Assembly: GCA_963848185.1 (NCBI GenBank)
Contig: CAWKCR010000022.1
Span: 102,019 to 166,018, forward strand
DNA: 64,000 nt
Direction: 5' to 3'
From: an uncultured Actinomycetota bacterium
GTDB taxonomy: Bacteria > Actinomycetota > Actinomycetes > Mycobacteriales > Mycobacteriaceae
Made by a program: the position numbers and the translations under genes. How positions within the stretch are numbered: the stretch's first letter is position 1; each line of letters opens with the position of its first letter. Under the pieces are notes generated by a model. It saw only the letters and a list, made by a program, of their open reading frames with translations, did no database searches and had not been told where the DNA came from. This document shows, piece after piece, positions 23,604 to 61,431 of this stretch.

Positions 23604-23621
23604 TGCGTATCGCGCTACTCG
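23604..23621. promoter_or_regulatory. Island palindrome copy 1
   Basis: TGCGTA-TCGCGC-TACTCG, 58 bp upstream of the partner/M48 operon. Confidence 0.65.
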
Positions 23622-23772
23622 TTAACGTTCGCAACCTGCTGCAGGGAGCCCTGAGCGCTACTTGACCGAGCGCCCTCGCAAATATGCCTCAACTAGTGGA
23701 TGGTGGACGTATGACCTCGCCACCTCCAGCACCGGGCAGCGCCGCAGATGCCCGACTTCTACTCGGTTAAAT

Positions 23773-24480
23773 GTGGCGATCCAGGAGCAACTCCTCGCCG
23801 CCGTCGATGGCCGGCGTGGGGTAGAGGCCGCTGACCGCCTGTGCGAGGCCTGCGTGCTGCTCTTCGACGTTGACGCCGCGGCCATTTCGCTGGTCTTCGA
23901 CGGCGCCAACACCGGCACGCTGGGATCCAGCGGTGCACCCGCACGGACATATGACGAACTGCAGTTCATCCTCGGCGAGGGGCCATGCCTGGAATCCGTC
24001 ACGAGGCGGACTCCGGTTCTCGTGGTCGACCTGGCCGACCCCAATGAGGCTCGGTGGCCCGCCTACGGCCCCGCCATGCTGTACCACCAGATCCGAGGCG
24101 TTTACGCGATGCCCGTGGTCGTGGCCGGTGAATACGTCGGCGCGCTGGATCTGTTCCGCGCGCAACCGGGCCAACTCGGGGGCGAACAACTGTCCGGCGC
24201 AATCACCGCCGCAGAACTGGCGGGCATCCCGCTGCTGGACCTGCTCGACGCCGACCTGCAGGCCGGCGCCGGCGATCCGGACAGCAACGCCTGGACCGAA
24301 CTCAACGCGCTCAGCCGCGTGGAGGTCAGCCAGGCCACCGGCATGCTGGTCGCGCAACTGGGCGTCGACCCCGCCGAGGCCCTGGTGCGATTGCGCGCCC
24401 ACGCCTACTCCACCGGCCGCAGCGCTACCGACGTCGCCCGCGACATCCTCGACCGGCGATTGAAGCTGGAGGCCGACTAA
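23773..24480 (+). CDS. GAF and ANTAR domain protein
   Basis: DELQFILGEGPC (GAF), VSQATGMLVAQL...ALVRLRAHAY (ANTAR). Confidence 0.9.
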   Translation: MAIQEQLLAAVDGRRGVEAADRLCEACVLLFDVDAAAISLVFDGANTGTLGSSGAPARTYDELQFILGEGPCLESVTRRTPVLVVDLADPNEARWPAYGPAMLYHQIRGVYAMPVVVAGEYVGALDLFRAQPGQLGGEQLSGAITAAELAGIPLLDLLDADLQAGAGDPDSNAWTELNALSRVEVSQATGMLVAQLGVDPAEALVRLRAHAYSTGRSATDVARDILDRRLKLEAD

Positions 24481-24516
24481 TGCGCGCCAGACGACAGCAC
24501 CAGGACGGAGTGTGAG

Positions 24517-25275
24517 ATGACCGATGCCCCTCGTGAAACCCGTGTGCTTGACGCGGTCGTGACGCTCGTCGACAGCCTGCTCTACGACTTCGACGTGGTC
24601 GACCTGCTGACCGAGCTCACCGAGCGCTGCGCCCAACTTCTGGATATCGAGTCCGCCGGGTTCCTGCTCGCCGATCCGCTCGACCAGCTCCGGTTATTGG
24701 CCGCGACGTCCGAGCAGGCCCGCGAACTAGAACTCTTCCAGTTACAGGCCGACGAAGGGCCCTGCGTCGAGTGCTATGCCACCGGCCAACCCGTCTCCGT
24801 CGCCGATCTGGCGGCCGTCACCGAGCGCTGGCCGCGGTTCGTCCCCGCCGCGCTGGAGGCCGGCTTCGCTTCCGTGCACGCGGTTCCGATGCGCGCCGCC
24901 GGCATCGTCTTGGGCGCGCTCGGCTTGTTCGGCACCCGCCCGGGCGAACTCAGCCAGGCCGACCTACTCGTCGGCCAGACTCTCGCCCACATCGCGTGCG
25001 TGGCGATCCTCCAGGAACACGCGCCCACGCCCTCGACGGTGATGCCGCAACTGCGCGCCGCGCTGGCCAGCCGCGTCGTCGTCGAGCAGGCCAAGGGCTT
25101 TCTGCGCGAAACCCTCGACGTCTCCGTAGAGGAGGCTTTCACGCTGCTGCGGACCTACGCGCGCGTCGGCGGCGACCATCTGACCGAGGTCGCTCGGCGG
25201 CTCATGACCGATCGGTATGCCCGCCCGGTATTGCTGGCGGACATCGCCGACCTCGCGGCGGCCCGCCCGAAATAA
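24517..25275 (+). CDS. GAF and ANTAR domain protein
   Basis: LELFQLQADEGPC, SRVVVEQAKG...EEAFTLLR. Confidence 0.92.
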   Translation: MTDAPRETRVLDAVVTLVDSLLYDFDVVDLLTELTERCAQLLDIESAGFLLADPLDQLRLLAATSEQARELELFQLQADEGPCVECYATGQPVSVADLAAVTERWPRFVPAALEAGFASVHAVPMRAAGIVLGALGLFGTRPGELSQADLLVGQTLAHIACVAILQEHAPTPSTVMPQLRAALASRVVVEQAKGFLRETLDVSVEEAFTLLRTYARVGGDHLTEVARRLMTDRYARPVLLADIADLAAARPK

Positions 25276-25279
25276 CGGC

Positions 25280-26089
25280 TCACGGCTGACGATTACGCGC
25301 ACGTGCGCGCCGCGCGGCCTCCTCCACCAGCCGCTCGGCAACGACGTACAGCTTGGTGTTCTCGGTCTGACTGAGTCGGGTGAGCCGTTCGAAGGCCTGC
25401 TCCGCAGTGGCACCCGACCGGCTGCGGATGATGCCGATCGCCTGATCGATCACCGCCCGGCTGTCCAGCGCACGCTGCAGTTGTCTGGTCCGCTCTTGGG
25501 CCCCGGCCAGCAGCTGCGCGTTGTACACCGAGACGGCCGCGGGCCCGGCGAACTGTGAACCCAGCTGCACGGCGTGCTCGCCGAACGCGTCGCGGCCGCG
25601 GGCATAGGCGTTGATCGCGCCGATCAGCTGATCGCCCACCATCAGCGGCAGCGACAGTGCGGAATGCACGGCCATCCGGGCCACCCGCCCGCCGAAATGC
25701 GGCCACCGACTGTCACTGCCCAGCGATCCACTCACGGTCGGCCGCCGCGACTGCATACACGTGAAGCACGGTCCCTCGTCGAACTCCTCGTACTGGACCG
25801 TGTCGATCTCGTGGACGAAAACCGCCGTGGCCGCCCACGTCTGGACGCTCGGTATGCCTTCGCGTGGGTCGATCAGCGCGACGCCCGCACCGTCTACGCC
25901 CGGAATGGCTTGGGCGGCGAACTCCGCCACATCGCCGAGCAGATCGATCAACCCGCGGGCGCCGGCCACGATCCCCGCCACTCCCTTCAGCCCGGCATAC
26001 AGATCGATCTCGTCCGCCTCCAGTTGTGCAGACGACAGGTCGGGCTGTGGTGGCGCTTCGCGACCCAGCTGGGCGTCGTAGTCAGCCAT
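25280..26089 (-). CDS. GAF and ANTAR domain protein
   Basis: QYEEFDEGPC, SRAVIDQAIGI...AFERL...SQ..N.KL. Confidence 0.92.
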   Translation of the reverse strand: MADYDAQLGREAPPQPDLSSAQLEADEIDLYAGLKGVAGIVAGARGLIDLLGDVAEFAAQAIPGVDGAGVALIDPREGIPSVQTWAATAVFVHEIDTVQYEEFDEGPCFTCMQSRRPTVSGSLGSDSRWPHFGGRVARMAVHSALSLPLMVGDQLIGAINAYARGRDAFGEHAVQLGSQFAGPAAVSVYNAQLLAGAQERTRQLQRALDSRAVIDQAIGIIRSRSGATAEQAFERLTRLSQTENTKLYVVAERLVEEAARRARARNRQP

Positions 26090-28953: not shown

Positions 28954-28962
28954 CTCAGCGAC

Positions 28963-30687: not shown

Positions 30688-31206
30688 CTACGGTCCCGCG
30701 AACGGCACCCGCAACACCTGCCCGACCTGGATCAGGTCCGGGTCGTTGATCGTGTCCCGGTTGGCGATGAACAGCCGCGGCCACAGGTTCGCGTCACCGT
30801 ATGCGGACTCGGCGATGCCCGACAGCGTGTCGCCGGCAACCACCTTGTGCGCCTGGAATCCCGCGTACGACGCACCCAGCAGCACCCGCCCGAACGTCAC
30901 CGGCACGGTGACGCGGAAGTCGTTCTGCGGCAGCCCGCTCGGGTTGTCGGCCTCGACGGTCAGCACACCCTCGGGCGTCGCCGGCGCACCCACCTGAACC
31001 GAGAACTCGAACAGGGTGAACAGGAATCCGCTGCCCGGCACGAACATCGGCGAGACCTTCGCCAGCACGGTGCCGTTCTTGTCCTTGAGCACCGCCGTGC
31101 CGAGCACCCCCTCGTTGGCCCGGCCGAGACCGGACAGGACGAAACCGTCCCCGACGATGTCGAAGGGTTGAGGGCTCCGCACCGTGATGCGCGCGAAATT
31201 GGCCAT
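30688..31206 (-). CDS. Ig-like (Gmad2-like) domain plus C-terminal LysM protein
   Basis: VVAGDTLSGIAE..YG...LWPRLFIAN...PDLIQVGQVLRVP; AGGAG RBS; no signal peptide. Confidence 0.85.
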   Translation of the reverse strand: MANFARITVRSPQPFDIVGDGFVLSGLGRANEGVLGTAVLKDKNGTVLAKVSPMFVPGSGFLFTLFEFSVQVGAPATPEGVLTVEADNPSGLPQNDFRVTVPVTFGRVLLGASYAGFQAHKVVAGDTLSGIAESAYGDANLWPRLFIANRDTINDPDLIQVGQVLRVPFAGP

Positions 31207-31273
31207 GGCCCGCTCCTTTCCCGAAGCGATTGAAATTGCGCGTCAATCGTCAGGCGAGAAAACCTGCCCGTCA

Positions 31274-31312
31274 CGAGTGGTCACTACTCGAATTCGAGTA
31301 CCGAAATACTCG
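31274..31312. promoter_or_regulatory. Island palindrome, double copy in a divergent promoter
   Basis: CGAGTG-GTCAC-TACTCG AATT CGAGTA-CCGAAA-TACTCG between the LysM and lipoprotein genes. Confidence 0.7.
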
Positions 31313-31370
31313 ATACTGCGGGTCGCGGCCGGAATACTCTCCACTGCACAGGCAGAAAAGGGGGCCGTCG

Positions 31371-31913
31371 ATGTCAGCCATCAATTTCGTCCGGCTCATT
31401 GCGTGCGCGTGTGTTCTGGTGGCCGCCGCGTGCAGCAGTGCCGCGGAATCGCCGCCCGGCCGGCCCGCGTCCACTGTCGTCGGCCAACCGAATCGCACCG
31501 TGGCACCGAATGTGCCCGGCGCGCCGCAGAAGACCGACGCGGGAAATGTGCCGACCGCACCGATAACGATTCCTCCGATATTCGACAAACAGGGCCGCCC
31601 GATCGACGAGGTTCGCAGCGAAGTGGCCAGTGAAATCGAGGCAGCTTGCGGAGGTGACTTGTGCGTCAACCTCACCGTCGCCGCGGGGAGCAACGACAGC
31701 TTCACCCAGTGCGAGTACGAGACGTCCGACCCCGCGTCGCATCCAGACGAGGCCTTCGTCCTCGAGCGCGGGTCGACCCTCACACTCCTGACCGGGTCAC
31801 AGCCCTGCGAGACAACCACGACAGAGACGACCGAGCCAGAAACCACCGAGGAGACAACCACCGAGGAGACAACCACCGAACAGCCGACCACGAATGTCGA
31901 ACCCACCGGCTGA
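31371..31913 (+). CDS. Lipoprotein with Thr/Glu-rich tail
   Basis: Lipobox-like VAAAC, four further Cys, TTEET repeats. Confidence 0.7.
   Translation: MSAINFVRLIACACVLVAAACSSAAESPPGRPASTVVGQPNRTVAPNVPGAPQKTDAGNVPTAPITIPPIFDKQGRPIDEVRSEVASEIEAACGGDLCVNLTVAAGSNDSFTQCEYETSDPASHPDEAFVLERGSTLTLLTGSQPCETTTTETTEPETTEETTTEETTTEQPTTNVEPTG
31841..31879 (+). repeat. 15-bp coding tandem repeat (TTEET)
   Basis: AACCACCGAGGAGAC repeated about 2.6 times. Confidence 0.8.
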
Positions 31914-32841
31914 GCCGACGCAGGCCGCGTCGCCCGCGTTGCCCGCGTCGCCGTTCGCAGGGTTCTCCCGCCTGGTCCGAATACTGGGGCAGTTCGTCGC
32001 GCCGACCACCCTGTTGACGGCGCTGCTGTTCTATTTCGGCTGGGCCCATGTCTATTGGTTCTTCGACTACTTCGGCGTCGACTCGTCGGTGCTTGCCCCG
32101 AGCACGCGCGAATACGTCATGCGCAGTGTCGACGCTTTGTTCATCCCGTTGATCACGGTCGCGGTCGTCGGCCTGGCATTGATGTGGGGACACCTCGCCC
32201 TGCCCGAGCGCCTCCGCGGCGGCCCGCGGTCGCGATGGCAGCTGATCGCGTTGACGGCCATCGGGATTCTGTTGCTGCTCAACGGGCTCAGCCGACTCGT
32301 GGTCATCACCCCGGTCAACCGCGGGCTGTGCGTCGCACCCATCTGCATCATCGTCGGCATCGTCCTGCTGTGGTATCTGACACTGTTGCGGCGCAGCCGA
32401 TTACACGCTGAGAACCCCACCACTCGATCGGACGCCGCCGTGCTGTGCGAGTGGGCGGTGATGTTCATCCTCGTCGCGATGAGCCTTTTCTGGCTCGCGA
32501 CGGACTATTCGGTCGCGGTCGGTCAGACCCGTGCCAGGCAACTGGCCGCCGAAATCCCATATCGCCCAGAGGTCGTGTTGTTCTCGGAGAAGGACCTCCA
32601 CCTTGACGGGCCCGACATCCGCGAAACCAAGTGCACGACGGGTCCGGACTCCGACTCGGCATACCGCTTCCGCTACGACGGCCTCGTGCTCCTCGGCGAG
32701 GTCGGCGGCCAGTACGTACTGCTGCCGAGGAATTGGCAGCGCGGCGTCGGCACGGCCATCGTGCTTCCCAAGTCGGGCGTCGGGGCAACTCGCTTCGAGT
32801 TCGCGACCACGAACGACTATGTGCCGCCACCCAACTGCTGA
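31894..32841 (+). CDS. Multi-TM membrane protein of unknown function
   Basis: About five TM segments plus a soluble C-terminal domain; overlaps the lipoprotein gene. Confidence 0.75.
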   Translation: MSNPPAEPTQAASPALPASPFAGFSRLVRILGQFVAPTTLLTALLFYFGWAHVYWFFDYFGVDSSVLAPSTREYVMRSVDALFIPLITVAVVGLALMWGHLALPERLRGGPRSRWQLIALTAIGILLLLNGLSRLVVITPVNRGLCVAPICIIVGIVLLWYLTLLRRSRLHAENPTTRSDAAVLCEWAVMFILVAMSLFWLATDYSVAVGQTRARQLAAEIPYRPEVVLFSEKDLHLDGPDIRETKCTTGPDSDSAYRFRYDGLVLLGEVGGQYVLLPRNWQRGVGTAIVLPKSGVGATRFEFATTNDYVPPPNC

Positions 32842-33340: not shown

Positions 33341-33544
33341 CTGTGGCTTGCCGAACGCAATGTCAACAAATGTGACGCGGTTTCCAGGGACATGTCTCTT
33401 GGTCGCGTCAACATTTGATGACGCGCGCGGAAGGGGTACCTGGTGTGTGGGTGGGGCGTTCGGTGTTGGGTCAGTGCTTACTTGCCGTAGCCGTCAATAA
33501 TGACGGCCGCGGAAGGGTGGGTGCCCTGGAAACCCACGCAAACA

Positions 33545-33562
33545 CGAGTAGTCCGTTACTCG
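33545..33562. promoter_or_regulatory. Island palindrome copy
   Basis: CGAGTA-GTCCGT-TACTCG upstream of the patatin operon. Confidence 0.72.
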
Positions 33563-33665
33563 TTCCACAGTCCCATCCGGCAAATAGCGTTGCCACTGCA
33601 AAGTCGCCGTGCATTATGCGCGCGCGTCGTACGCTTTTCCGACGAAGGTCGAACAGGGGAGGGCA

Positions 33666-34823
33666 ATGACCACCGCAACACCTGACGATGTGCTCAGTCC
33701 GGTCCGCGAAATACCCGGAGACTCCGACAGCAAGGTCGAAAAGGGCATCGCTCTATGCCTTTCGGGCGGCGGCTATCGGGCGATGGTGTTCCACGTCGGC
33801 GTGCTCTGGCGGCTCAACGAAGTGAAAATACTGTCGCGGCTCGATCGCATTTCGACGGTGTCGGGTGGGTCGATCACCTCGGGAATTCTGGCCACCCGTT
33901 GGTCGGACCTGAATTTCGTCGACGGCGTCGCGCAAGATTTCGACCGCTTCGTCGACAGCGTCCGGAGGATGGCCCGCACCCCCGTCGACCTCGGCGCCGT
34001 GGTCCTCGGGTCCCTGCTACCCGGCGAGATCTCCGATCGCGTCGTGAAGGCCTACCGCAAGCACCTCTTCGGCGACGCCACCCTTCAGGACCTCCCCGAC
34101 GAGCCGCGCTTCATCTTCAACGCCACCAACCTGGAATCCGGTGTGCTGTTTCGGTTTAGCAAGCGCTACCTCGCCGACTACCGCGTCGGGCGCATCCTGG
34201 CGCCCGACATCGACCTGGCCACCGCCGTCGCGGCGTCCTCCGCCTTCCCGCCGGTGCTGTCGCCATGCACGCTCAATCTGAAAGACAAGGACTGGACGAC
34301 GGAGAACGGCAACGATCTGACCGGCCCGGCCTATCGCAACGAGATCAAACTCAGCGACGGCGGCGTCTACGACAACCTTGGCCTCGAGACTGCGTGGAAG
34401 CGATGCAACACCATCCTGGTCAGCGACGCCGGCGGCAACGTCGACGCCGACCCTGATCCCGGATCCGACTGGCTCCGCGGAACCGCGCGGGTACTCAAGC
34501 TCATCGACGGCCAGGTGCGCAGTCTGCGCAAACGGCAGGTCGTCGATTCGTTGAAGGCGAAGACCAGGGACGGCATGTATGTCGGCATCCGCAGCAATCT
34601 CGCCAAATTCCCGGTGTCCGTATTGAAGGCCGACCACACGAAGACACTCCAACTTGCTGACCTGCCAACCAGACTCGACGCGATGGACAACAATACACAG
34701 GAGCGACTGATCAACTGGGGCTACATCGTCTGCGACGCCGGCCTGCGCTCCCACGTCATGCGCGAGGAACTTGGTGGCGTGCCGGCCACCAAACTTCCCT
34801 ACCCCGGTCAGGCGCTGGAATGA
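33666..34823 (+). CDS. Patatin-like phospholipase
   Basis: LSGGGYRA oxyanion loop, VSGGS nucleophile, ASSAFP, DGGVYDN. Confidence 0.92.
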   Translation: MTTATPDDVLSPVREIPGDSDSKVEKGIALCLSGGGYRAMVFHVGVLWRLNEVKILSRLDRISTVSGGSITSGILATRWSDLNFVDGVAQDFDRFVDSVRRMARTPVDLGAVVLGSLLPGEISDRVVKAYRKHLFGDATLQDLPDEPRFIFNATNLESGVLFRFSKRYLADYRVGRILAPDIDLATAVAASSAFPPVLSPCTLNLKDKDWTTENGNDLTGPAYRNEIKLSDGGVYDNLGLETAWKRCNTILVSDAGGNVDADPDPGSDWLRGTARVLKLIDGQVRSLRKRQVVDSLKAKTRDGMYVGIRSNLAKFPVSVLKADHTKTLQLADLPTRLDAMDNNTQERLINWGYIVCDAGLRSHVMREELGGVPATKLPYPGQALE

Positions 34824-49992: not shown

Positions 49993-52949
49993 GCCGGTAC
50001 CTCCCAGGCCTCCAGGAAGCGGGTCGGCTGCGTGGGGTCGCGAAGCTGGTCGCGCATCACCTGCCACAGGTCGACCGCGGTCTCGACGGTCGCCTCGGCG
50101 ATCGGCTGCGCGGCACGCTCTTCAAAAACGTTGCGGTCCACCGCGATCAGGGTGGTGTCCATCGGACGTAGCGTCGGGCCCGCGACGGCCCTCAGCGACG
50201 GTGGCCGCAATCCCACCGTCACCGCCGCCGGCCGCCAGCGTTGCAGGCGCTCGGCGACCGAGTAGCTCAGCGACGTCTCCTGCGCATACAGGCCGGGCCA
50301 CTTCGATACCGCGCGGGGATCTGCCAGCGGAGGCTCGTATGCGGTTTCGTAACCGTCGTCCACCCGATGCCCGGCGCCGAGTCGAAAGCCACCGGTCACC
50401 ACCTGTTTGCCGCTGTTGTGGGTGGAAGTCGGCGGAGCGGTGAGCTGTTCGTCCTCGGTCAGATCGAACAGTTCGCCGCGGACAAAACGCTCCACGAGGT
50501 CGCCGAGACGGTCCGCAGGTTGCACCACCCCGACCTGGACGCTGGTGATGGCCCAACGCTGCTCGGCGACCCGGCGGCGCGAGTACTTGGTGAAAACAAC
50601 GTCCAGCGGAACCACCGCTTGGCTGACCCGGAAGGTGGAATCCGGGTGCACGAGGGTGCCGGCTGTCATTTCTTCGGCGGCCGTGCGGGTGAACGTCAAA
50701 CCGGTCCGCTCGGCGCTGGGGCGTTCGATGATCCAGGCGTCGGGTTTGTTGATCGCAGCCTTCACGGGGCCGGACAGGTCGTCGCCGACGATGCGGGCGG
50801 CCACCGCCGGTGGAGCGCCCCAGCCGATGTCGAAATCCAGGTCGACGTCCCAGAACAGCACCGAGATGCTGCCGGTGCCGAACGCATGCCATGGCGCCGG
50901 CCCTTCCAGGGTGAAGTCCAGTCCCACGCTGGCCAGCCGCTGGCCGAGAGCGCGCACGGCCACCCCGGCGAAGATGCGCACCGAGAACGAGAAGGTCGGG
51001 TCGAAGCGGAAGAGCGCGTCCAGTCCCAGCCAACCCTCCACCCCACACTTGGCGATCATCGCTTCCAGGTGCAGGCGACCGCCGAACTGCACGGCGTTGG
51101 ACGTGACCGCGAAGTACGCCTCGATGCTCATCGCGAAGGGGAAGCCGGGCCGCAGATCCATCTGCAGACGCTGCAGCGCGGGTACGCCTGCCGGGCGGAC
51201 GTACCGTGGGTGGAACCCACCGGCCGACAAGACGAACTCGGGGCGGTCACCGCCCCGGACCAGCAGGTAGATCTCGCCGCGCACTGCCAACCCGACGATC
51301 CAGGATCCAGCCAGGGAGACCAGCAGTTCGAACGACGGCACGCCGGGATCGAATCGGCCAAGGATGCTGGCTTGCAACCGAACCAGCGGCACCACGGGGT
51401 CGGGCACCCCGACAAGCAGCCGACCCAGAATCACCGCCTGCACCGGTGCGGGCAGCTCCAGAATCAGCGCACCGGACAGTGACACCATCCGTCCGCCCCA
51501 CGTGATCCGCACCATCGGGGCGATGACGAACCTGCTGCCGGCCAGCGGGAATGCCGCCGACAGCGCGCCGATCACCTCGTCGGCGCGCTCGACGATCCGC
51601 TCGGGGAACAGCACCCGATCAGCATGACCGTCACTGACCAGGCGGGAGATCTCGGTGACGTCGACGCGGCGGTTGACGCCGACGAGGCCGCCGACCGCGT
51701 CGAGGGCGAATCCGAAGCAGAGTTGGATCCCCGGCGGTGGGAATTGCGCGGCGAGGACCACGACGAAACTGGTGGGATTCTTTGCGTCGGGCGGTCGGAA
51801 CACCGCAACGGCCTGCATGCCGATGACGCCGAGATCGACCGCGATGACGCCGCCGTAGCTGGTGTCATCGATCTTGCGGACGAACCCGCCGCCGGACACC
51901 GGGGGAAGCGTGAGGTTCACCCCGATGCCGTCAGGGGTGAGTGCACGGAGACCGGCCGGGTCCAGGCGGGGCCGCTGCCCAGCGGGAAACTTCAGGGGCA
52001 GACTACTTCCCGCGTCACTGAGCATTGCCCGCAGCGGTAACCCGGGCAGGCTCGCGGTGAGTGAGGTGACCACGCCCAGGTGCAGCGAGCCGTCGGACTG
52101 CGACAGAGTAAACGCAGTGCCGCGGCTTTGCAGGCCGGGGGCGTTGAGCCGCAAGGGAATTGGCAAACGCAGCGAGCTACCTCCGGCGAATCGCACGCCG
52201 TTGTTGCGGTCTGCCTCGACGGTGACCGTGATCGCTGCCGAGTCGTTCGACGCGGCCGGTTGGTTGGGCGACGTGCCGACCAGTCGTGCCAACTCCGCCG
52301 GCAGGATCGCTACCTCGACTCCGCGCAGCTGGACGGTGACCGTGGGCGGGGCCGGCGGGTTTGCGGCGACGGTGATCGCGAAACCCTTCAGCCGCATGCC
52401 CGGGCCCGTGGTCATGCCGGCCTGAAACGGTGCGGTGCGCTCGACGCGGACGCTGGCCGACCCGCCGGGCGGTGGCGGTCCGCCGGCGGCGACGTCCCAC
52501 CCGTCGGGAGCGTCCACGGTCACCGCCGCCGACCACTCCGCCGCCGGGTTAGGCGGGTTGGGTGTCTGGAATGTCAGCGCCGCCCCGCCCGACACGACGA
52601 CGTCGAACAGCGGGTTGTTCGCGGCATCGGGTGTGACGGCGACCGCGGCGAGGCGCGTCGGGTCGGCAGGGTCCTTGATCACCAACGCAATTCCGGGCCC
52701 GGCGTTGGGAGCGCGGCGCCAGCCGTGGAGGCGCACCGGCGAGTCGGCGTCGAGCTCGCCGGTGATGTCGCGGACCAGATCTGTCAGCGGGTTGCCCGCG
52801 GGAGGCACGACCACCGAAAGCAGCCGTCCACCCATCAACGCGTCGCCGGGTTGCAGGGCCGGCAGCTGGGCGAGCAGATCACGGACCGCCCGGTCGACGT
52901 AGGCCTTCAGCTCGGCGGTGACCAGCCGCCACAAATCGTTCGGGTTCAC
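49989..52949 (-). CDS. DUF6603-like beta-rich protein (~986 aa)
   Basis: GIQL.FGFAL..VGGLVGVNR, FVLSAGGFHP, YFAVTSNAVQFGG, LEGPAPW; GTGA overlap with the WD40 gene. Confidence 0.75.
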   Translation of the reverse strand: MNPNDLWRLVTAELKAYVDRAVRDLLAQLPALQPGDALMGGRLLSVVVPPAGNPLTDLVRDITGELDADSPVRLHGWRRAPNAGPGIALVIKDPADPTRLAAVAVTPDAANNPLFDVVVSGGAALTFQTPNPPNPAAEWSAAVTVDAPDGWDVAAGGPPPPGGSASVRVERTAPFQAGMTTGPGMRLKGFAITVAANPPAPPTVTVQLRGVEVAILPAELARLVGTSPNQPAASNDSAAITVTVEADRNNGVRFAGGSSLRLPIPLRLNAPGLQSRGTAFTLSQSDGSLHLGVVTSLTASLPGLPLRAMLSDAGSSLPLKFPAGQRPRLDPAGLRALTPDGIGVNLTLPPVSGGGFVRKIDDTSYGGVIAVDLGVIGMQAVAVFRPPDAKNPTSFVVVLAAQFPPPGIQLCFGFALDAVGGLVGVNRRVDVTEISRLVSDGHADRVLFPERIVERADEVIGALSAAFPLAGSRFVIAPMVRITWGGRMVSLSGALILELPAPVQAVILGRLLVGVPDPVVPLVRLQASILGRFDPGVPSFELLVSLAGSWIVGLAVRGEIYLLVRGGDRPEFVLSAGGFHPRYVRPAGVPALQRLQMDLRPGFPFAMSIEAYFAVTSNAVQFGGRLHLEAMIAKCGVEGWLGLDALFRFDPTFSFSVRIFAGVAVRALGQRLASVGLDFTLEGPAPWHAFGTGSISVLFWDVDLDFDIGWGAPPAVAARIVGDDLSGPVKAAINKPDAWIIERPSAERTGLTFTRTAAEEMTAGTLVHPDSTFRVSQAVVPLDVVFTKYSRRRVAEQRWAITSVQVGVVQPADRLGDLVERFVRGELFDLTEDEQLTAPPTSTHNSGKQVVTGGFRLGAGHRVDDGYETAYEPPLADPRAVSKWPGLYAQETSLSYSVAERLQRWRPAAVTVGLRPPSLRAVAGPTLRPMDTTLIAVDRNVFEERAAQPIAEATVETAVDLWQVMRDQLRDPTQPTRFLEAWEVPA

Positions 52950-53998
52950 CCGACACCACCGGTGACGTCGAGTACCACCGCCTTGTTGAAATGCCCTAGG
53001 CCCAGCCAGAGGCTGTTGGGACTGAACCGGAGCGCAAGGACCTCGTCGGTGTTCTGCGGGGGGAAGCGTCTGACCCCCGTCGCCACGTTGATGGCCTGCA
53101 CGACGTTGTCGATTGCGGTGCTCGCCGCCCACTTTCCGTTCGGACTGAACGCGACGTGGGTGACTGCGCCGGTGTGCTCGAGGCGGAAGGTGTTCTCCAC
53201 GCCGGACTCTGCCTCCAGAATCCGCGCGGAGTCGTCGGCGCCACCGACCACGGTCCAGCGGCCAGTCGGGTCGAAGGCGACGTGAGTGGATCCGAGCGAG
53301 TCCTCGCGTTCGAGGTCTTCCGGTACCTGCCATAGCTGAGTACCGTCGTCGGACTTGAACATTCGCGTAGTTCCGTCGGCACTGCCGAACAGAACCATGG
53401 ATGCGTCCGGGCTGAACGCTACGGCGTGCACCGCGTCGTCGGGGGTCTTGCGGCTGCGCTCGGCGCCGGTGGTGAGGTCGAACACGCGCGCGGAGCCGGC
53501 TTGGTGATGGTTGCCGCCGTGGCGTTCGTCGATGGCGACCGCGAGCAGCTTGCCGTCCTTGCTGAGGTCGACGTCGACGATGGTCTGGTCGACGACGATC
53601 GGTGGCAGAACCGGGTCACCGGTCGCCGCGTCGAGCACCGCGATGCGAGTGTCGGTGGTTGCGATGAGCTGTTGTCCGTCGGGAGTGAAGGTGACGGAAT
53701 TGACCGAGCTCGCCGCCTCGATGGCACCTTCCCAGCCGAGCGCCCCGTTGCTGGCCGAGTGGGTCGCGACGCGGTCGAGATCGGCCAGCGCGAGCGTTGC
53801 ACCGTCGGGACTGAACGCGATGCTCGAGACGAATCCGTTGACCGGGATGTCCAGCTTCGGCCCCGTCTGCACCGCGCGGACAAGGACGTTGGTGCCGGCC
53901 CCTCCGCTGGCGAACCGCGTCGAGTCTGCGCTGAACGCAATCGCATTGACGGAGCCGTCGTGATCGACAGTGAGGATGGCACTACCCGCTTGACTCAT
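52946..53998 (-). CDS. WD40 repeat beta-propeller protein
   Basis: About eight V..VAFSPDG repeats; GGGGGAG RBS. Confidence 0.9.
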   Translation of the reverse strand: MSQAGSAILTVDHDGSVNAIAFSADSTRFASGGAGTNVLVRAVQTGPKLDIPVNGFVSSIAFSPDGATLALADLDRVATHSASNGALGWEGAIEAASSVNSVTFTPDGQQLIATTDTRIAVLDAATGDPVLPPIVVDQTIVDVDLSKDGKLLAVAIDERHGGNHHQAGSARVFDLTTGAERSRKTPDDAVHAVAFSPDASMVLFGSADGTTRMFKSDDGTQLWQVPEDLEREDSLGSTHVAFDPTGRWTVVGGADDSARILEAESGVENTFRLEHTGAVTHVAFSPNGKWAASTAIDNVVQAINVATGVRRFPPQNTDEVLALRFSPNSLWLGLGHFNKAVVLDVTGGVG

Positions 53999-54160
53999 AG
54001 CTCCCCCAACCAGATGCATCGAGCCGGCGAAAACTGGTCGATTGTGTCATCGTGCACAGGCTGTGCGTCAGCTTTCGCCTGATGTTGTTTCGGATTTCAA
54101 CGGCGAGCTTTCTCGGCGCGGTCACGGTGCGAACGGTATCGACGCCATCGCTCGCCGTCG

Positions 54161-54178
54161 CGAGTAGTGCACTACTCG
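54161..54178. promoter_or_regulatory. Island palindrome, perfect copy
   Basis: CGAGTAGTGCACTACTCG, a perfect 18-bp palindrome upstream of the WD40/DUF6603 operon. Confidence 0.78.
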
Positions 54179-54200: not shown

Positions 54201-55421
54201 CTAATGAAAGTCGTTGGCCAGCGGGAACAGCCCGTCTCCTGGCGGACGGGCCAGGTCGGGATTGAGGGCGGTGAGTTCGGCCGAGTCCGCGGCGTCGCGA
54301 AACAGCTGCGCGCTGATCTGCTGTGCTTCGGTGTTGCCGCTGAAGGTCATGTTCGCGCACTGGCGTAGCCACAGGGCGATCTGGCGGTAGGTCGCCGCGT
54401 GTCCCTGGGCCAGGATTCCGGGGATGTAACCGTTGTCGTCGAACAGTTCGGGGTCGGTTTCGGCGAAGTAGAAATGTGCGGCTTCGGAGAGTGCGACCGG
54501 CTGCAGGAACTGCGCGGCGAACGGATCGCCCGCATTCTCGCGCTCGATGATCCAGTTGACGTGGCGCGCGTTCATCTCATGGGCGAACTGAAAGAAGACG
54601 CGCGCCGTCGGTCTACCGGTCGCCTGGGACAGGTTTGCCGCCAGATTGGGATCGAGGAAGCTTTCGGTGTCGAAGGTCGGGGTGTTCTCCAGACCCAGCC
54701 CTTTGTTGCGCATATGGGTCAGCTCATGGCACAGCACGGCGCGCAGATCGACCTTCGCCTTCCGGCCGGTCGGATGGTGGGTGAGCGACATCCGGCCGCG
54801 TATCGTCAGGTCGTTGAAGGCGATCGCGACGTGTTCCTGTCCATCGGTGCCGTCGAAGTCGACCGTGATGCCCGCGGCGTCGGGGCGCATGTCGCGGTCG
54901 ATGTGGTCGATGATGGCGGCGGGTATTCGGTTGTCCTGAACACCACGAATCCTGCTGTGCGCGACGATGGCAAGGCAATGACCCGAATTCAGCGCCGATC
55001 GCATGAAGCCCCCGAGGTCGTGACGTTGGGTGTTCAGTGGCGCATCGATAAGCGGTGCAAGTTCGAATCCGACGAAGGGCTCCACCACATGTGCGGCGAC
55101 GAACGAGGCAACTTCGCCGAACGCTGGATCCAGGCTTGGCGGGTCGACGAACAACTCCGCGTCCAGCTGGCCCGACGTCCCTTTGCCGACCACCGGATCG
55201 GTCGGCTCCAACCCGCGGCTCTGCTTGAACGCACTCACCGCTGCGCCGGTTGCGTCACCGAAGATCCCGTCGAGCCCACCGCTCGGGAAACCGAGTGTGT
55301 CCAATGCCTCCTGGACGCGCATGACCGAGAGGTTCTCCTCGGGTGCGTGCATCCGGTGGGCGCCGGCGAAGCATTGCTCCAGGACGGGGTCGAGGGAAAA
55401 GCGAGGGGAATTCAGTCCCAT
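54201..55421 (-). CDS. Peptidoglycan-binding domain protein with C-terminal HExxH metallopeptidase-like domain
   Basis: VQEAL..LGF....DGIFG..T..AV.AF....GL..D.VVG..T; HELTH followed by HEMNAR. Confidence 0.8.
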   Translation of the reverse strand: MGLNSPRFSLDPVLEQCFAGAHRMHAPEENLSVMRVQEALDTLGFPSGGLDGIFGDATGAAVSAFKQSRGLEPTDPVVGKGTSGQLDAELFVDPPSLDPAFGEVASFVAAHVVEPFVGFELAPLIDAPLNTQRHDLGGFMRSALNSGHCLAIVAHSRIRGVQDNRIPAAIIDHIDRDMRPDAAGITVDFDGTDGQEHVAIAFNDLTIRGRMSLTHHPTGRKAKVDLRAVLCHELTHMRNKGLGLENTPTFDTESFLDPNLAANLSQATGRPTARVFFQFAHEMNARHVNWIIERENAGDPFAAQFLQPVALSEAAHFYFAETDPELFDDNGYIPGILAQGHAATYRQIALWLRQCANMTFSGNTEAQQISAQLFRDAADSAELTALNPDLARPPGDGLFPLANDFH

Positions 55422-55527: not shown

Positions 55528-58179
55528 CTAGCTGTGGGCGCCGCTGCGGATAAGCGCGGCCAGTTCCTCGCGGTCGGAGATGTCGAGCTTGATGCACGCC
55601 CGGTAGAGGTGGCCCTCCACGGTGCGCACCGACACCGTCAGCCGGTCGGCGATGTCGCGATTGCTCAGCCCCGCCGCAACCAGATTGGCGATCTCGCGTT
55701 CACGGACCGTCAGCGGCAACGGGTGTGCGGCCAGATCCAGTGCGGGGGTTCGGATTCCGCCGCACTCGGCCGCCAGCCGGTTCGCCGCCGCGGCCGCCTC
55801 CACGCTGCGGCGGCGGTCGTCGGCACCCTCGAACGCGACCGCCGCCTGAGCGAAAGCATCGGCCGCCGACAACAGCGCACCGATCTCCTCGAATCGCTGC
55901 GCCGCGGTCGAAATTCCCGCCCCGTCGCGGTCGCGCACCGCCTCGGCATGTGCCGCGATCGCCGCCGCCAGACGTCCACCCGTCGCGGCCGCCACCTCGA
56001 CGAGCCGGTCCAGGGAAGTCTGATCGCCGAACCGCACCGCGTCGTGCAGCGCCAGCATCTCGATCGCCTGCTGCCCCGAGTCCGCCGCCTGCCGCGCCGC
56101 CTCCAGCGCGAGATCGATTGCGGCGCTGATATTTCCCTCCGCAGCGGCCAGCCACGACTCGGTGATCGTGAGCTGCGGGCCGAACACCGCGACGTGCCGG
56201 CCGAAGCGCGTCTTCACTTCGGCCACCATCTTGGCGCCGGGCTCCACGCGGCCCAGCACACAGTAGGACTGCGCCAGCAACAGACGCGCCGGGAAGCTCC
56301 ACGACGCCGCCGACTCCGCGGTCAAGGCGGCAACCGTTTGTTCCATCCGCGGCACCGTATCGGCGAACAGCCCCCGGGCCACCCCGACGGTTCCGACCAG
56401 CACGTTGGCCATACCCCACGCCAGGTACTGGCCCGAGGACGTGATCCGGATGATGTCGGCGGATCGCTGTGCGGCGGTGTCGAAGTCGCCGGCCAGCGCC
56501 AGCGCGCGGACCTCACCGAAGGCGGCGAGATGGCGCAGCAGTCCGTCGACCCTCCTCTCCACCTGATGGCCCCGCTCCGCGACCGCGGCGACCTCGTCAG
56601 CGCGACCCATCAACGCCAGCGCCAGCGCGCCGCCGAACGCGGCCCATTGGACGGCGGTCGGGTGGGCGTCGGGATCGGCAAGCACCCGCTCGGACAGTGC
56701 GACGGATTCGGAGAGCTGATTCTCAAACGCGCGGGACGCGGACGCGACGCCGTCGACGAGCAGCCGCAGCCCGTTGTGAGTGATCTTCTCCCGCAATAGT
56801 TCCAGCACCTCGTCGGCGCTCTCGGCATCGCCCATCGACCAGTGCAGGTTGGCGATTCGCGCCAGACCCCAACGCACCAGGTCGATTTCGTTCATCTGGT
56901 CCGGGTCGAACGAGTTCAGCGTCTCCTCGGCCTCTGCGGCCTTACCCTGCCACAGCAGCGACCGGGCCAACAGCTCGCTGGCGGTCAGGCCGCCGCCGCG
57001 GTTCACGGCGGCACGGGCCAGCCGCTCACCCAACGTGACGTTCGTCAGCGCGATCGCGTCCCGCGCCGCAGTCTCTAACAGCTCGAGGTCGGGCGATTGG
57101 TCGCTGTCGAGCGTCAACTCCGCCAACCGCATACGGTCCGTCGGCCCACGCAACGGGTGACCCTGCAGCGCGCGCACCACCTCGCCGCGCAACCGACGCG
57201 CCGCCGCCATGCCCAGCCGCCGGCGGATCACCTCCCCGAACAACGGATGGTTGAACCGCACGTCGATGTTGGAATGGTCCTCGACGACGCGGATCAGGCC
57301 GCGGTTCTCCGCATCCTCCACCGCGTCGACACCGACGATGTCGGTCAGCGTGTCGAGATTCAAAGGCTCACAGAACGTCAGCAGCCGCAGCGTGTGCAGC
57401 ACGTTGTCGGGCAGCTGATCGACCCGGGAATCCAGCAGCGACGCCAGTTCGGAGGTGACCGCGGTCCGGCCGCGCAGCTGCCACACACCGCGGACCTGAC
57501 GCAGTGTGCCCGCCTCCAACGCGCCCTCGACCAGGTGCCGGACGAACAACGCGTTTCCGCCGGACGCCTCCCACATCAGGTCGGCCGACAGTCCCTCGAC
57601 GCGGCCGCCGAGCGCCTGCTCGATGAGACTGACGCACTGATCCCTCGTGAAAGGCATCAGGTGCAGCCGCTGCAGATAGCCATCCTTCCACAGCGAGGTG
57701 ATCGCGTCGGGCACCGTCTCTCCGGCCCGCACCGTGGCGACGATGCGGACCGAGCCGTCCAGCGCCAACTGGTGAAGCAGGGTTGCCGACAGTTGATCCA
57801 GCAAATGCGCGTCGTCGACACCGATCACTGAATGGCCTTCGGCGAGAATGGTTTCGCGCGCCGCCGACAGGAACGCCACCGGATCCCGGGACGTCGCGGC
57901 CCCCACCAAGTGCGCGAAGACTCCGAGCGGGATGCTGCGCGCCGACTCGGTACCGGCCACCCACTGCACCCGCGACGGCAGCGACTGCGTCACCAGGCGG
58001 GCAAGCGTTGTCTTGCCCACGCCGGCATCGCCGATCAGCACGATCCCGCACACACCCGTTTGCTCCACCAGCGCGTTGTAAATCGCCGTGTATTCGGTAT
58101 CGCGCCGGACCACAGGCCAGTTTTGGGCCACGACCTCGAACTTTACTACCTCCGGGGGGAGGAGAGCGGGACTTGTCAC
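55528..58179 (-). CDS. Large AAA-ATPase LuxR-family (MalT/LAL-like) transcriptional regulator
   Basis: GDAGVGKT, VDDAH, GGNALF, helical repeats, C-terminal LTVREREIA.L.A.GLSNRDIA..L.VS.RTVEGHL. Confidence 0.93.
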   Translation of the reverse strand: MTSPALLPPEVVKFEVVAQNWPVVRRDTEYTAIYNALVEQTGVCGIVLIGDAGVGKTTLARLVTQSLPSRVQWVAGTESARSIPLGVFAHLVGAATSRDPVAFLSAARETILAEGHSVIGVDDAHLLDQLSATLLHQLALDGSVRIVATVRAGETVPDAITSLWKDGYLQRLHLMPFTRDQCVSLIEQALGGRVEGLSADLMWEASGGNALFVRHLVEGALEAGTLRQVRGVWQLRGRTAVTSELASLLDSRVDQLPDNVLHTLRLLTFCEPLNLDTLTDIVGVDAVEDAENRGLIRVVEDHSNIDVRFNHPLFGEVIRRRLGMAAARRLRGEVVRALQGHPLRGPTDRMRLAELTLDSDQSPDLELLETAARDAIALTNVTLGERLARAAVNRGGGLTASELLARSLLWQGKAAEAEETLNSFDPDQMNEIDLVRWGLARIANLHWSMGDAESADEVLELLREKITHNGLRLLVDGVASASRAFENQLSESVALSERVLADPDAHPTAVQWAAFGGALALALMGRADEVAAVAERGHQVERRVDGLLRHLAAFGEVRALALAGDFDTAAQRSADIIRITSSGQYLAWGMANVLVGTVGVARGLFADTVPRMEQTVAALTAESAASWSFPARLLLAQSYCVLGRVEPGAKMVAEVKTRFGRHVAVFGPQLTITESWLAAAEGNISAAIDLALEAARQAADSGQQAIEMLALHDAVRFGDQTSLDRLVEVAAATGGRLAAAIAAHAEAVRDRDGAGISTAAQRFEEIGALLSAADAFAQAAVAFEGADDRRRSVEAAAAANRLAAECGGIRTPALDLAAHPLPLTVREREIANLVAAGLSNRDIADRLTVSVRTVEGHLYRACIKLDISDREELAALIRSGAHS

Positions 58180-60230
58180 AGGAGTATGTGGTCGAGTTGC
58201 ACGAGTTCGCGTGGCAGTCCGGTCGTTTCGAGGCGGTCCAGCGGGTCGGCGGCAACGTAGGGCGCCAGGTCCAGTCCCGTGAGATCCGCGATCCGGCGCA
58301 CCGGCACCTGGAACGTCCGATATGCGCCGTAGGAGAACGACTCGGGCAGCGCGCCCGGCAACCGCTCGGTGCGGAACTCGTCCAGCAATGACTCCTGACT
58401 GAGAAGATACGCTGTGACAGAAGGCTTTCCGTCAGTACGCACCATCGCCACGACCTTCCAGTACTGCAGCGGCAACGCCACGCCGCGATACTCCGGATCG
58501 CCGTCGTCGAGCACCGGCCCGGTGAGCACGCTGACCCGCAGGTCCGACGTCACCGCGTTCTGCAGCACGTAGTCCTCCAGGCCCAGCCACAACGTCCGGC
58601 CGGCGTTGAATTCGTGATGCTGCGGTGTGCAGTTGGTGAAGTGGAAGGTGTCGTCGACGGCGGCGGCCGATTTCGGGCCCCAAGCCGGGTCCAATCGGCG
58701 CACCAAATGCCCACGGTCGAGGTCGTTGTCGCGGTACACCTCTTCGCCGGTCTGCTCACTGGCCGGAATCCGCGGATCGACAATCCACGCGTCGCGGTCC
58801 CGGCGCGGGTGATCGGCCTTGCCGCCGTCGATGTTGACCGCAGTGAACAGAGCCAGCTTTCGCTTGCGCTGCATCACCACGCTGAAGTTGTGATACGGCA
58901 GCGGCTCCGTTGCCAGATCGGCATCGGCCGTCAAAACCGGCAGCGGAAGTGGGATGCCCAGGAACGCTGGGTCATAGCCGGGTCGCGTGCTGTAGTCCGG
59001 ATCGATGGATTCGGTGCTCGGCGCCGTCGGCTGCTCGACGCGCAGCGCGGCGACGGCGCCCGGCGGCAGCGTCACCTCGAGCGTGAGCGGAATCTTGATC
59101 GAGATCGGCGAGTTGCCGTCCGGTCGCGGCGTCGCGGTGGTTGGTTTCCGCTCGGGTGATGGCGGGTGCAGGATCTCGTCGGCCAACGCCCGCTGCGAGG
59201 CCGGCAGCTGGCTGTTCTTGACCATGCCGAGGATCGCCGTCACCCGCACGCCCTCGTTGAGCACGTTTCCGAAGTCGGGATGTTCGGGTGCGCGAACACT
59301 GGCGTGGTGCAGCGCGAGCACTTCCCACTGGTCGTTGAACACCGGCGAGCCCGATGAGCCCGGCTCGGTGTCGGCGGAGTAGTGCACGAAGTGCTCCCCG
59401 CCGTCGACGATCCGGTTCTCCCGCAAGGCCACCTGCTTCTTCTCACCGCGGGGATGCTGCACGATCGTCACGAACTCGCCGAGCAGTGCCTTGCCCTCGG
59501 ATTCGATCAGCCGGTTGAATCCGAACGGCGCGAGCTCGTCGGCCACGGCCTGCACCGCCACGATTGCGAAATCCAAACCCTCGTCGGCGAGGAAGAACCG
59601 GTCGGGATCGAAGCCGAATGTGGTGACGTCGAGCAGTTTGCCGTCAATGCCGTCCTGGTAGTCGAACTCGACCTGACTCGTGGCTGCCGCATCCGCGTTG
59701 TCCAGCACGTGATGATTCGTCAACATCAGGTGCGGCGAGATCATCGACCCCGTGCCGTAACCGACGAGCCGTCCGCGGCTGTCCTTGATCAGAATCCGGC
59801 CGACCGCCCGTGCGGCGGCCACACCGGCGTCGAGATATCGCGTCCCGACGAAATCCGCTGTGTTGATGATGGCTTCGAGCAGCTGCTCGGGCGGCGTCGA
59901 ATTGGGCACAGGGGCGCGCTCGACTGCCTTCTGGGCCAGCTCATCGGGCGCGTCGGTCGGAGTGGTCTCCGGCAGCTCGACGCCCGCGTAGTAGCGGGTG
60001 ATGCGGTCGAGGCGCCGGGCGACGAGTTCCGGTGGGTTGGCCTCGGCCAGGCTGCTCGATGACGCGAGCGCCTGCTCGTGCGCAAGCCGCGGTTCGGCGC
60101 GTTCGGCGACCCGGCGGCGAAGGGCCTCGATCTGCTGCTCTTCCAGAACCCGGCGGCGCAGCATCGCATCGCGGCGCGGATCGATCTTGTCCGGGTCGGC
60201 GTCCTGGAACGCCGGGGTGATGATGGTCAT
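58176..60230 (-). CDS. Trypsin-like serine protease fused to a DNA/RNA non-specific (EndoG/NucA) endonuclease
   Basis: GTG...TNHHV, LDFAIV, DTEPGSSGSPV; C-terminal DRGHLVRR, TNCTPQ...N...W..LE. Confidence 0.92.
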   Translation of the reverse strand: MTIITPAFQDADPDKIDPRRDAMLRRRVLEEQQIEALRRRVAERAEPRLAHEQALASSSSLAEANPPELVARRLDRITRYYAGVELPETTPTDAPDELAQKAVERAPVPNSTPPEQLLEAIINTADFVGTRYLDAGVAAARAVGRILIKDSRGRLVGYGTGSMISPHLMLTNHHVLDNADAAATSQVEFDYQDGIDGKLLDVTTFGFDPDRFFLADEGLDFAIVAVQAVADELAPFGFNRLIESEGKALLGEFVTIVQHPRGEKKQVALRENRIVDGGEHFVHYSADTEPGSSGSPVFNDQWEVLALHHASVRAPEHPDFGNVLNEGVRVTAILGMVKNSQLPASQRALADEILHPPSPERKPTTATPRPDGNSPISIKIPLTLEVTLPPGAVAALRVEQPTAPSTESIDPDYSTRPGYDPAFLGIPLPLPVLTADADLATEPLPYHNFSVVMQRKRKLALFTAVNIDGGKADHPRRDRDAWIVDPRIPASEQTGEEVYRDNDLDRGHLVRRLDPAWGPKSAAAVDDTFHFTNCTPQHHEFNAGRTLWLGLEDYVLQNAVTSDLRVSVLTGPVLDDGDPEYRGVALPLQYWKVVAMVRTDGKPSVTAYLLSQESLLDEFRTERLPGALPESFSYGAYRTFQVPVRRIADLTGLDLAPYVAADPLDRLETTGLPRELVQLDHILL

Positions 60231-60264
60231 GCGGCGAGTCTGCTGATCAGCGGCCACGCAGTCT

Positions 60265-60282
60265 CGGGTAGTGCAGTACGCA
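60265..60282. promoter_or_regulatory. Island palindrome copy (degenerate)
   Basis: CGGGTA-GTGCAG-TACGCA upstream of the trypsin-nuclease/regulator operon; half-site GCGCTACTCG at ~60316. Confidence 0.6.
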
Positions 60283-60326
60283 AATTCTTTCCACGCACCA
60301 CGCCATTGGTCGATGGCGCTACTCGC

Positions 60327-61346
60327 TCAGGAGGCGGCGAGCACCTCTTGTTCAACCCGTGCGGTCGCCGGCTCGACATGCACCAGCCGCTCGCCGCGGG
60401 CCAGCCAATCCATGTCGGCCCAGACGACGTGGGCGGGCAGCCGCCGCCAGTACTCCGGATGCGCGCGCAGGTAGATGTCGACGCTGGCGTGCACGAGCGC
60501 ATCGGCCGGCAGCCTGCGGATCGAAATCGTGGGTGCGCTTCCGGCCAGCGCGTCGAACTCGCTCGGTGCGGGCGCACAGCTCGCGCCCCGCACCGCGACA
60601 CCCGCCTTGACGGCGCCGTCGAGCATCCAGTCGAGCGCAATATCGGCCAGCGGCCAGCATGCCCCCGGACCGCCGGCGACGTCGCACCGCGCGCCGCGGA
60701 ACCAGACCTCTTCGACGCGTTCCGAGGCCGACGCGACGAGGTGCTCGCCGAACGGACCGTAGCCACCGTCGACGGCGACCGCATGCCGGCCGGCGACGAC
60801 ATTGGACAACGATTCGGCCATGGAAGGCCGCGGAAGCCCCGGCACCTTCACCATGTCCCACAGCCCCAAAAACTGTACGGGAACGCCGATTTCGCGCCGT
60901 CCGGCCAGCCGCGCCGCCAGTAGCGTCACCCGCCGCCAGTCCTGCGGGGTGCGCCGAGTGCGGGGCAGGACATAGGCGGCGAGCACGTAGTCCATCAGGT
61001 CGGGCAGCACTCCAACGGTGCCGAGCAGTCGCGCCAGGGCCTGTGCACAATATGCGCCGCGGCCGACGCCGAACATGAAGATCCGATCGCCTGGCTCCCA
61101 CCAGTCGACCAGGAACTCGTAGGCCTCGGCGATGGCCGCCCGCGCGTCGTCGATGGCGGCCTCTCTCCACCGAAGCCTGCCGAGTGGCCCGCCTCGGGAC
61201 GAGGCGGGAATCCGCGCGCCCGAGTGGTACCAGGTGATCTGCTCGTCGCTCTCCTCGAGCAGCCGGAGCAGCGCCTCGGCGTTCGTGGCGTCCCGCAGCC
61301 CGGGATGGGCACGTGCGCGGTCGTAGCACAGCACGATGTTCTTCAC
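60327..61346 (-). CDS. DUF2235 (Tle1-like alpha/beta hydrolase) with degenerate catalytic triad
   Basis: KNIVLC.D, AYEFL...PGDRIFMFG..RGAY.A..LA, FLGLWD.V, RHAVA.D, EVWF.G...DV.GG. Confidence 0.85.
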   Translation of the reverse strand: MKNIVLCYDRARAHPGLRDATNAEALLRLLEESDEQITWYHSGARIPASSRGGPLGRLRWREAAIDDARAAIAEAYEFLVDWWEPGDRIFMFGVGRGAYCAQALARLLGTVGVLPDLMDYVLAAYVLPRTRRTPQDWRRVTLLAARLAGRREIGVPVQFLGLWDMVKVPGLPRPSMAESLSNVVAGRHAVAVDGGYGPFGEHLVASASERVEEVWFRGARCDVAGGPGACWPLADIALDWMLDGAVKAGVAVRGASCAPAPSEFDALAGSAPTISIRRLPADALVHASVDIYLRAHPEYWRRLPAHVVWADMDWLARGERLVHVEPATARVEQEVLAAS

Positions 61347-61413
61347 GTCGACCCCCGACCGAAATTATTTGCGGTGCTGGTAGACAGTTTGCCCGGCAAA
61401 AGCCGCCGTGTCC

Positions 61414-61431
61414 TGCGTATCGCACTACTCG
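61414..61431. promoter_or_regulatory. Island palindrome copy
   Basis: TGCGTA-TCGCAC-TACTCG upstream of DUF2235; 17/18 identical to the 23604 copy. Confidence 0.68.

Follow-up and report, generated by a model that had tools for sequence, protein, structure and literature searches.

A short palindromic box with the core CGAGTA-N6-TACTCG heads eight transcription units in a 64,000-nucleotide (nt) stretch of mycobacterial DNA, referred to here as the window. The window is part of contig C22 of a 5.55-Mb mycobacterial genome (G000) with a marker completeness of 63%. The box stands in a fixed register with a -10 promoter hexamer, co-occurs across the genus with a little-studied family of large STAND-type (MalT/LAL) regulators carrying a LuxR helix-turn-helix (HTH) domain, and is conserved in orthologous promoters. 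Sequence comparison makes it very probable that the mycobacterial members of this family bind the box and activate transcription. The adjacent 883-amino-acid (aa) family member is likely to be the main binder for the eight promoters of the window.

The box was proposed in a sequence-only reading of the window, and direct reading of the DNA found all eight sequences in place. As claimed, the sites are intergenic and lie 34-162 bp from a start codon; gene models come from our own crude codon-based caller, and both start positions and the labelling of sites as lying in genes are approximate. No site scores above 12 in window positions 1-23,000 (recBCD and metabolic genes). The box-led units number eight and not seven as first counted, because the 17-mer at 31274 and the box at 31295 drive two divergent genes. 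The consensus can be extended to CGAGTAGY-SS-RCTACKCR. The exact core occurs four times in the genome, three of these inside the window, and spacers other than N6 (range 0 to 15 nt) give 0-2 genome copies each. In a leave-one-out procedure, position weight matrices (PWMs) built from six sites matched the held-out seventh at a level reached by 4-14 genome positions, with an expectation of 0.05-0.16 per 64 kb. A fitted degenerate pattern matched 8 times where 1.93 matches were expected, and none of 100 shuffles did as well; this result is partly circular, as the pattern was fitted to the sites. The genome-wide count alone is not decisive, and the case rests on the clustering of the sites and on their phasing with the -10 hexamer.

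At seven of the eight window sites, an ANNNT hexamer is located exactly 22 nt downstream of the box, on the side facing the gene. This rule was spotted in the window and then tested elsewhere with a PWM derived from the window's seven sites only. Phasing was observed for 62 of 67 intergenic sites in other genomes, for 9 of 12 in loci gathered after the rule had been noticed, and for 26 of 27 in held-out metagenome loci, where none of 28 sites lay inside a gene. When 326 loci are pooled, the hexamer follows at 22 or 23 nt in 110 of 118 intergenic sites, as compared to a mean of 11.2 and a maximum of 21 for control offsets. Only 6 of the 124 pooled sites lie inside genes. In orthologous promoters, box and -10 hexamer are conserved and the flanks have diverged.

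It has been reported for M. smegmatis that ANNNT is the -10 element of SigA, that VANNNT promoters are weaker, and that about 24% of transcripts are leaderless (accessible text of PMC6448022). Here the hexamer starts with T in only 30 of 115 oriented promoters, and in 23 of them an ATG or GTG follows exactly 6 nt past it, the next best distance being represented by 7. For example, the box at 60265 is followed by CAGACT and, after 6 nt, by the ATG of a trypsin-nuclease gene; this arrangement of box, hexamer, 6-nt gap and start codon is kept in the relative G086, and in G095 it is found directly 5′ of the regulator. A start codon 6 nt past the -10 hexamer suggests a leaderless transcript, and the box would therefore occupy about -52 to -35, a position which reads as that of an activator. 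A sigma-70 consensus scan found no promoters.

The candidate binder is encoded on the reverse strand at 55528-58179. It contains a Walker A motif (GDAGVGKT), a Walker B motif (IGVDD), a putative helical-repeat middle region and a LuxR HTH at the C-terminus (PF00196 at residues 822-875, including SVRTVEGHLYR). The middle region is all-helical in a low-confidence single-sequence model (mean predicted local distance difference test score, pLDDT, 48), and a fold search with this model gave the TPR-STAND structure 6mfv as hit 2 (E 4.4e-4, template-modelling score 0.19). Walker A is present in 82 of 82 homologues, the Walker B pattern in 74, and a single recognition-helix pattern fits 80. The same genome encodes five paralogues whose recognition helix is nearly identical, and family members are present in 95 of the 120 genomes sampled from the genus. 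The AbsR2 equivalog NF050132, though the best NCBIfam match, was rejected for the regulator (253 bits against a cut-off of 850), as was IniR NF038181 (27.9 bits against 750), a cut-off that no protein of this genome reaches. The NCBIfam MalT model gave a weak match restricted to the HTH part.

Box and family co-occur across these 120 genomes. The 41 genomes with a close homologue contain 169 sites (control pattern 55), that is, 4.1 per genome. The 54 genomes with distant homologues only contain 72 (control 81), or 1.3 per genome, and the 25 genomes without a homologue contain 5 (control 36). Of the 31 close homologues, 20 have a strong phased site no more than 6 kb away, as have 14 of the 50 distant ones; the background is about 3% (11 such sites in 5.49 Mb). 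All five members of the window regulator's subclade have local sites. The site proposed ahead of the regulator's own operon is confirmed, and it is kept in the orthologous loci examined: in G095, G086, G044 and metagenome loci, the box stands on the regulator's own unit directly, via the trypsin-nuclease gene or via DUF2235. Positive feedback is therefore predicted. Sites also adjoin two other paralogues in this genome, facing the divergent gene, and are often placed directly 3′ of, or divergent from, family genes, facing the neighbour. Outside the family, the strict pattern was matched in 6 of 191 genomes, once each; of 11 distant actinobacterial homologues, 4 have a related box next to them, which is phased in 2 cases. 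The distribution of these sequences points to a family-wide element that is not private to the local gene. Boxes of the type RGAGTA-N6-TACTCT were seen beside distant homologues in other actinobacterial families (L209, L211, L212, L217 and L218), with a 5-nt spacer in L209.

A natural experiment is provided by the DUF2235/Tle1-like gene at 60327-61346 on the reverse strand, which is headed by the box at 61414-61431 (reverse strand; -10 CAAACT at 61386-61391). Its orthologues are spread across the genus; roughly one in four of the genomes sampled has one, and an intact second paralogue often lies next to it. The nucleophile serine (GxSxG) is absent in the window protein, in 11 of 11 aligned orthologues and in the 29 closest genome matches; it is present in 4 of 4 paralogues. 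Judged by its residues, the gene encodes a conserved pseudo-enzyme, a pseudo-phospholipase, and it is the most conserved target of the box. The lipases that had been assigned to the programme must therefore be counted without DUF2235. Leaving G000 and the G072 paralogue aside, the DUF2235 promoter retains box and -10 hexamer in 12 of the 15 genomes that have a close regulator, in 2 of 10 with distant regulators only and in 0 of 3 with none. The closest regulator is encoded elsewhere in the genome in 8 of the 12 box-keeping genomes, and the box would therefore act in trans. In G040 (L259), which has distant regulators only, a decayed box remnant was seen at the expected distance 5′ of DUF2235, with the -10 hexamer intact. 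Aes is an inhibitor of MalT. By analogy, one may speculate that the dead DUF2235 protein, transcribed with the STAND protein, modulates the regulator.

A number of observations weigh against activation of these promoters through the box by the STAND-LuxR family. The weakest site, at 23604, has the hexamer TTGACT (23576-23581) at 22 nt and not ANNNT. Genome-wide, 21 sites exceed 16 bits; column-permuted palindromic PWMs average 8.9 such sites, and 2 of 20 surpass 21. Counts of phasing and co-occurrence ignore kinship, genomes and orthologous promoters not being independent; the co-occurrence pattern was picked after inspection of three of the 120 genomes, which were screened for the STAND-LuxR family alone. 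Moreover, a strong phased site within 6 kb is missing for 11 of the 31 close homologues, and the DUF2235 site persists in G012 and G021, where all full-length homologues are distant (at most 37%). Finally, among 20 further mycobacterial cassettes encoding DUF6603 proteins, the box heads only 3, both WD40-type ones included.

The sequence-only reading took the box for the operator of the regulator at 55528-58179. At the level of the family this holds, through co-occurrence, adjacency and the box on the own unit; as a statement about a sole local binder it is doubtful, given the five paralogues and the shared helix. The window promoters might be driven mainly by another paralogue, or by all five jointly, and not chiefly by the adjacent gene. 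This alternative is unlikely. In its favour, besides the number of paralogues and the helix pattern common to 80 of 82 homologues, sites lie beside distant paralogues, and G012 and G021 are exceptions. Conversely, the number of sites tracks the close clade (4.1 vs 1.3 per genome with distant homologues only), local sites occur throughout the window subclade (5/5), and the own-unit box recurs in orthologous loci.

A different genus-wide factor, such as a short protein of NarL/GerE type, could bind the box, with the STAND-LuxR genes as mere targets. HTH domains of NarL type bind inverted repeats, and short GerE-only genes stand behind sites in G013 and G071. This explanation is nevertheless quite improbable, as sites fall below control in family-free genomes (5 vs 36), and often adjoin family genes yet face the neighbour. 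In addition, a related box accompanies distant homologues from other actinobacterial families (L211, L212, L217 and L218). Still less credence is given to the box as a repressor operator or an alternative-sigma promoter element. The last base of the box overlaps the -35 region and TG follows the box at most sites (G in 90 of 115); however, the box is a symmetric 18-mer lying 5′ of the core promoter, not over -10/+1, and the -10 hexamer is of the SigA ANNNT type, mostly of the weak class. A repetitive extragenic palindromic (REP) element, a repeat resembling a miniature inverted-repeat transposable element (MITE) or mere chance has a negligible probability and was rejected: some permuted PWMs come near the genome-wide count, but the flanks of the eight sites are only 31-34% identical, without homology beyond the core palindrome, no extended inverted repeat was found around the box, and fixed -10 phasing is unexpected of a repeat.

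Activation by the STAND-LuxR family, the preferred explanation, would proceed through several steps. A ligand would bind the helical sensor region of the regulator, and ADP/ATP exchange would allow the protein to oligomerise. Paired HTH domains would sit on the box at -52 to -35, with the centre at -43.5/-44.5, and the bound regulator would recruit SigA polymerase to promoters that mostly possess a weak VANNNT -10 hexamer. The box on the regulator's own unit would render induction self-amplifying, and acquired cargo that gains a box would join the regulon, in trans too. The expected output consists mostly of proteases without signal peptides, a patatin, a nuclease, a metallo-β-lactamase (MBL)-fold protein, wall-binding proteins and the DUF6603 cassette.

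The architecture of the regulator is already known from activators of the AlkS/MalT type. AlkS of Pseudomonas putida GPo1 is likewise a large LuxR/MalT activator, and its operator, a 20-bp inverted repeat, abuts -35 and also precedes its own promoter, with positive feedback (accessible text of PMC8784404). This likeness is one of description. AlkS differs in phylum, box and cargo, and serves one catabolic pathway as opposed to about 19 units with exchangeable cargo in a single genome here. MalT of E. coli, the STAND prototype, shares the layout of NTPase, helical sensor (here predicted) and LuxR HTH, whereas its boxes are described as direct repeats (accessible text of PMC6099782) and here a single palindrome is found at a fixed position. 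AbsR2/SCO6993, a Streptomyces LAL protein, binds palindromes, its own promoter included; however, it is a repressor, and a consensus site was not derivable in its study, the accessible text of which gives no consensus operator (PMC9628970). IniR (Rv0339c) is a mycobacterial STAND-LuxR activator with the same domain plan that regulates only iniBAC; the main text on IniR, as far as accessible, names no operator and lacks both "binding site" and "palindrom" (PMC5760070). No report of the box, its geometry or its regulon was found in the accessible literature, although ChIP (chromatin immunoprecipitation) or motif tables in supplements and closed journals could hold one.

Among the units of the window, the box at 23604-23621 (reverse strand) heads the M48 unit (20414-23509, reverse), formed by a 154-aa unassigned gene (23045-23509) and an 874-aa M48 peptidase that contains about 12 hydrophobic segments (20414-23038). 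No counterpart of the M48 gene was found in 40 relatives. Three adjacent GAF-ANTAR genes, also found in G044, are located at 23773-26089. The 17-bp variant box at 31274-31290 (reverse; -10 GACGAT at 31246-31251, 22 nt off) heads a 172-aa Gmad2-LysM protein (30688-31206, reverse); the site of its G104 homologue is a full 18-mer.

The next three boxes are on the forward strand, as are their units. The box at 31295-31312 (-10 TACTCT at 31335-31340) heads the lipoprotein unit (31371-32841), with a lipoprotein-like gene (31371-31913) and a 315-aa membrane protein (31894-32841), neither of which matched a Pfam family. The box at 33545-33562 (-10 TAGCGT at 33585-33590) heads the patatin unit (33609-37944), which comprises a patatin (33609-34823), a 610-aa HExxH metallopeptidase-like protein (34820-36652) and an MBL-fold hydrolase (36685-37944) with weak matches to LmuA/Avs1a models. 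Unrelated to the box, a 12-bp inverted repeat (GTCAACAAATGT / ACATTTGATGAC) is present at 33362-33422, 5′ of a SnoaL-like gene. The box at 37984-38001 (-10 AATGAT at 38024-38029) heads the S8 unit (38071-39563), namely an S8 subtilase whose D/H/S motifs are intact (38071-39336) and its 76-aa companion (39333-39563), a pair conserved in G086, G072, L225 and L226.

The remaining features are on the reverse strand. The perfect palindromic box at 54161-54178 (-10 TACCGT at 54133-54138) heads the WD40-DUF6603 cassette (39680-53998), consisting of WD40 (52946-53998), DUF6603 (49989-52949), an 850-aa unassigned protein (47440-49992), a gene of about 2000 aa, also unassigned (41616-47400), a hemopexin (40258-41583) and an M23-like protein (39680-40213). 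A peptidoglycan-binding-domain protein (54201-55421) is encoded 3′ of the regulator. The box at 60265-60282 (-10 CAGACT at 60237-60242) heads the trypsin-nuclease/regulator unit, with predicted autoregulation; its first product is a fusion of a trypsin-like protease and a non-specific endonuclease (58176-60230), with intact motifs and a predicted leaderless transcript whose ATG lies at the predicted +1. Apart from DUF2235, the island enzymes have intact catalytic motifs, and among 21 island open reading frames a hydrophobicity heuristic found a strongly hydrophobic N-terminus only in the lipoprotein and the M48 peptidase.

The predicted regulon is not confined to the window: 13 of the top 20 genome sites lie outside and 11 of these are phased. 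Targets outside include a TIR-like/WD40 gene, two P450s, a LysM fragment, a hydrolase and a hydrogenase-like gene. The TIR-like and WD40 gene (L007:1191-3950, contig C10 of G000) stands behind a strong box beside a transposon. The same chromosomal spot in relatives carries other box cargo, such as hemopexin, metallopeptidase, MBL, caspase and large LysM proteins, and targets elsewhere comprise S8, C1, A4, M4, astacin, S58 and M20 peptidases, patatin, heme peroxidase, P450s and MMPL clusters. For many box targets no Pfam family was matched. In G095 and G086 (L111:10629-18983, L113:3245-11596), the place of the DUF6603 cassette at this locus is taken by a pair of unassigned giant proteins, one of about 1280 aa with three LysM domains and one of about 1500 aa; in G095 the pair comes behind the box. 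In G059 (L033:7327-19998, L045), a box-led BTAD gene and a 49% regulator homologue lie beside a contractile injection-system cluster, in the same ECH/TetR-side neighbourhood as the window island. At L130, L132, L134, L136, L138, L141 and L142, a heme-peroxidase gene and a gene labelled catalase-like by sequence reading stand directly 5′ of the regulator, behind the box, and possibly belong to an oxylipin-type pathway.

The DUF6603 cassette of the window is of the WD40 type, as in Streptomyces and Sphaerisporangium (51-61% identity), where the four cassettes (L025-L028) show neither box nor regulator in the stretches examined. Conversely, all three WD40-type cassettes seen in mycobacteria (window, G607 and G549) carry the box. 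In the remaining 17 of the 20 further cassettes, the box is elsewhere or unphased in 4 and absent in 13; G099 has a weak box, and G059 and G064 have none within the intervals tested. Close regulators of the three clear box-headed cassettes are on other contigs. DUF6603 was named in no publication found, supplements and closed journals being outside the search. A profile search of the PDB with the 850-aa protein found nothing, and its single-sequence model had a pLDDT of 33. A protein Atlas search with a 1975-aa homologue of the gene of about 2000 aa returned only unnamed clusters. This gene is frameshifted near 44660, its homologues being single genes of 1975-2130 aa. The frameshift is probably an assembly error, because recB (4395-7673) is also split, near 6511, against intact homologues and completeness is 63%; for the same reasons, real pseudogenisation was rejected as the default reading.

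As to purpose, the best guess, tentatively held, is a programme of antagonism or scavenging whose products would leave the cell by lysis or through a delivery machine. Regulated self-destruction or anti-phage defence, with an NLR-like sensor that turns on the transcription of death effectors, is possible, if on the doubtful side. In its favour, the hydrophobicity heuristic leaves the island enzymes without signal peptides, MBL and trypsin domains match LmuA/Avs1a models (the G095 MBL at 7e-58), and the targets include a caspase and TIR-like/WD40 proteins. On the other hand, LysM, peptidoglycan-binding, heme-peroxidase and P450/MMPL genes and a gene linked to an extracellular contractile injection system are also targets, and no complete anti-phage system (Lamassu, Avs1, 6A-MBL) was recognized among 33 proteins scanned, which gave partial effector-domain matches only. 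Some purpose other than these two is unlikely.

Beyond the antagonism or scavenging programme, a broader reading, which we regard as possible but rather unlikely, is that of a "transcriptional NLR": a STAND sensor of a damage, prey or infection signal, locked by feedback and tuned by a dead phospholipase, would control through one box a plug-in arsenal of immune-like effectors, an injection-system locus and the DUF6603 giant-protein machine. If this were true, the box together with an activated regulator would offer a first handle to induce and purify the DUF6603 machine. With a defined box and a fixed geometry, the regulon would become readable from any mycobacterial genome. The box predicts start sites and may offer a tight inducible promoter. 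It would also tie patchy, probably silent cargo, the DUF6603 cassette included, to a single switch open to laboratory testing.

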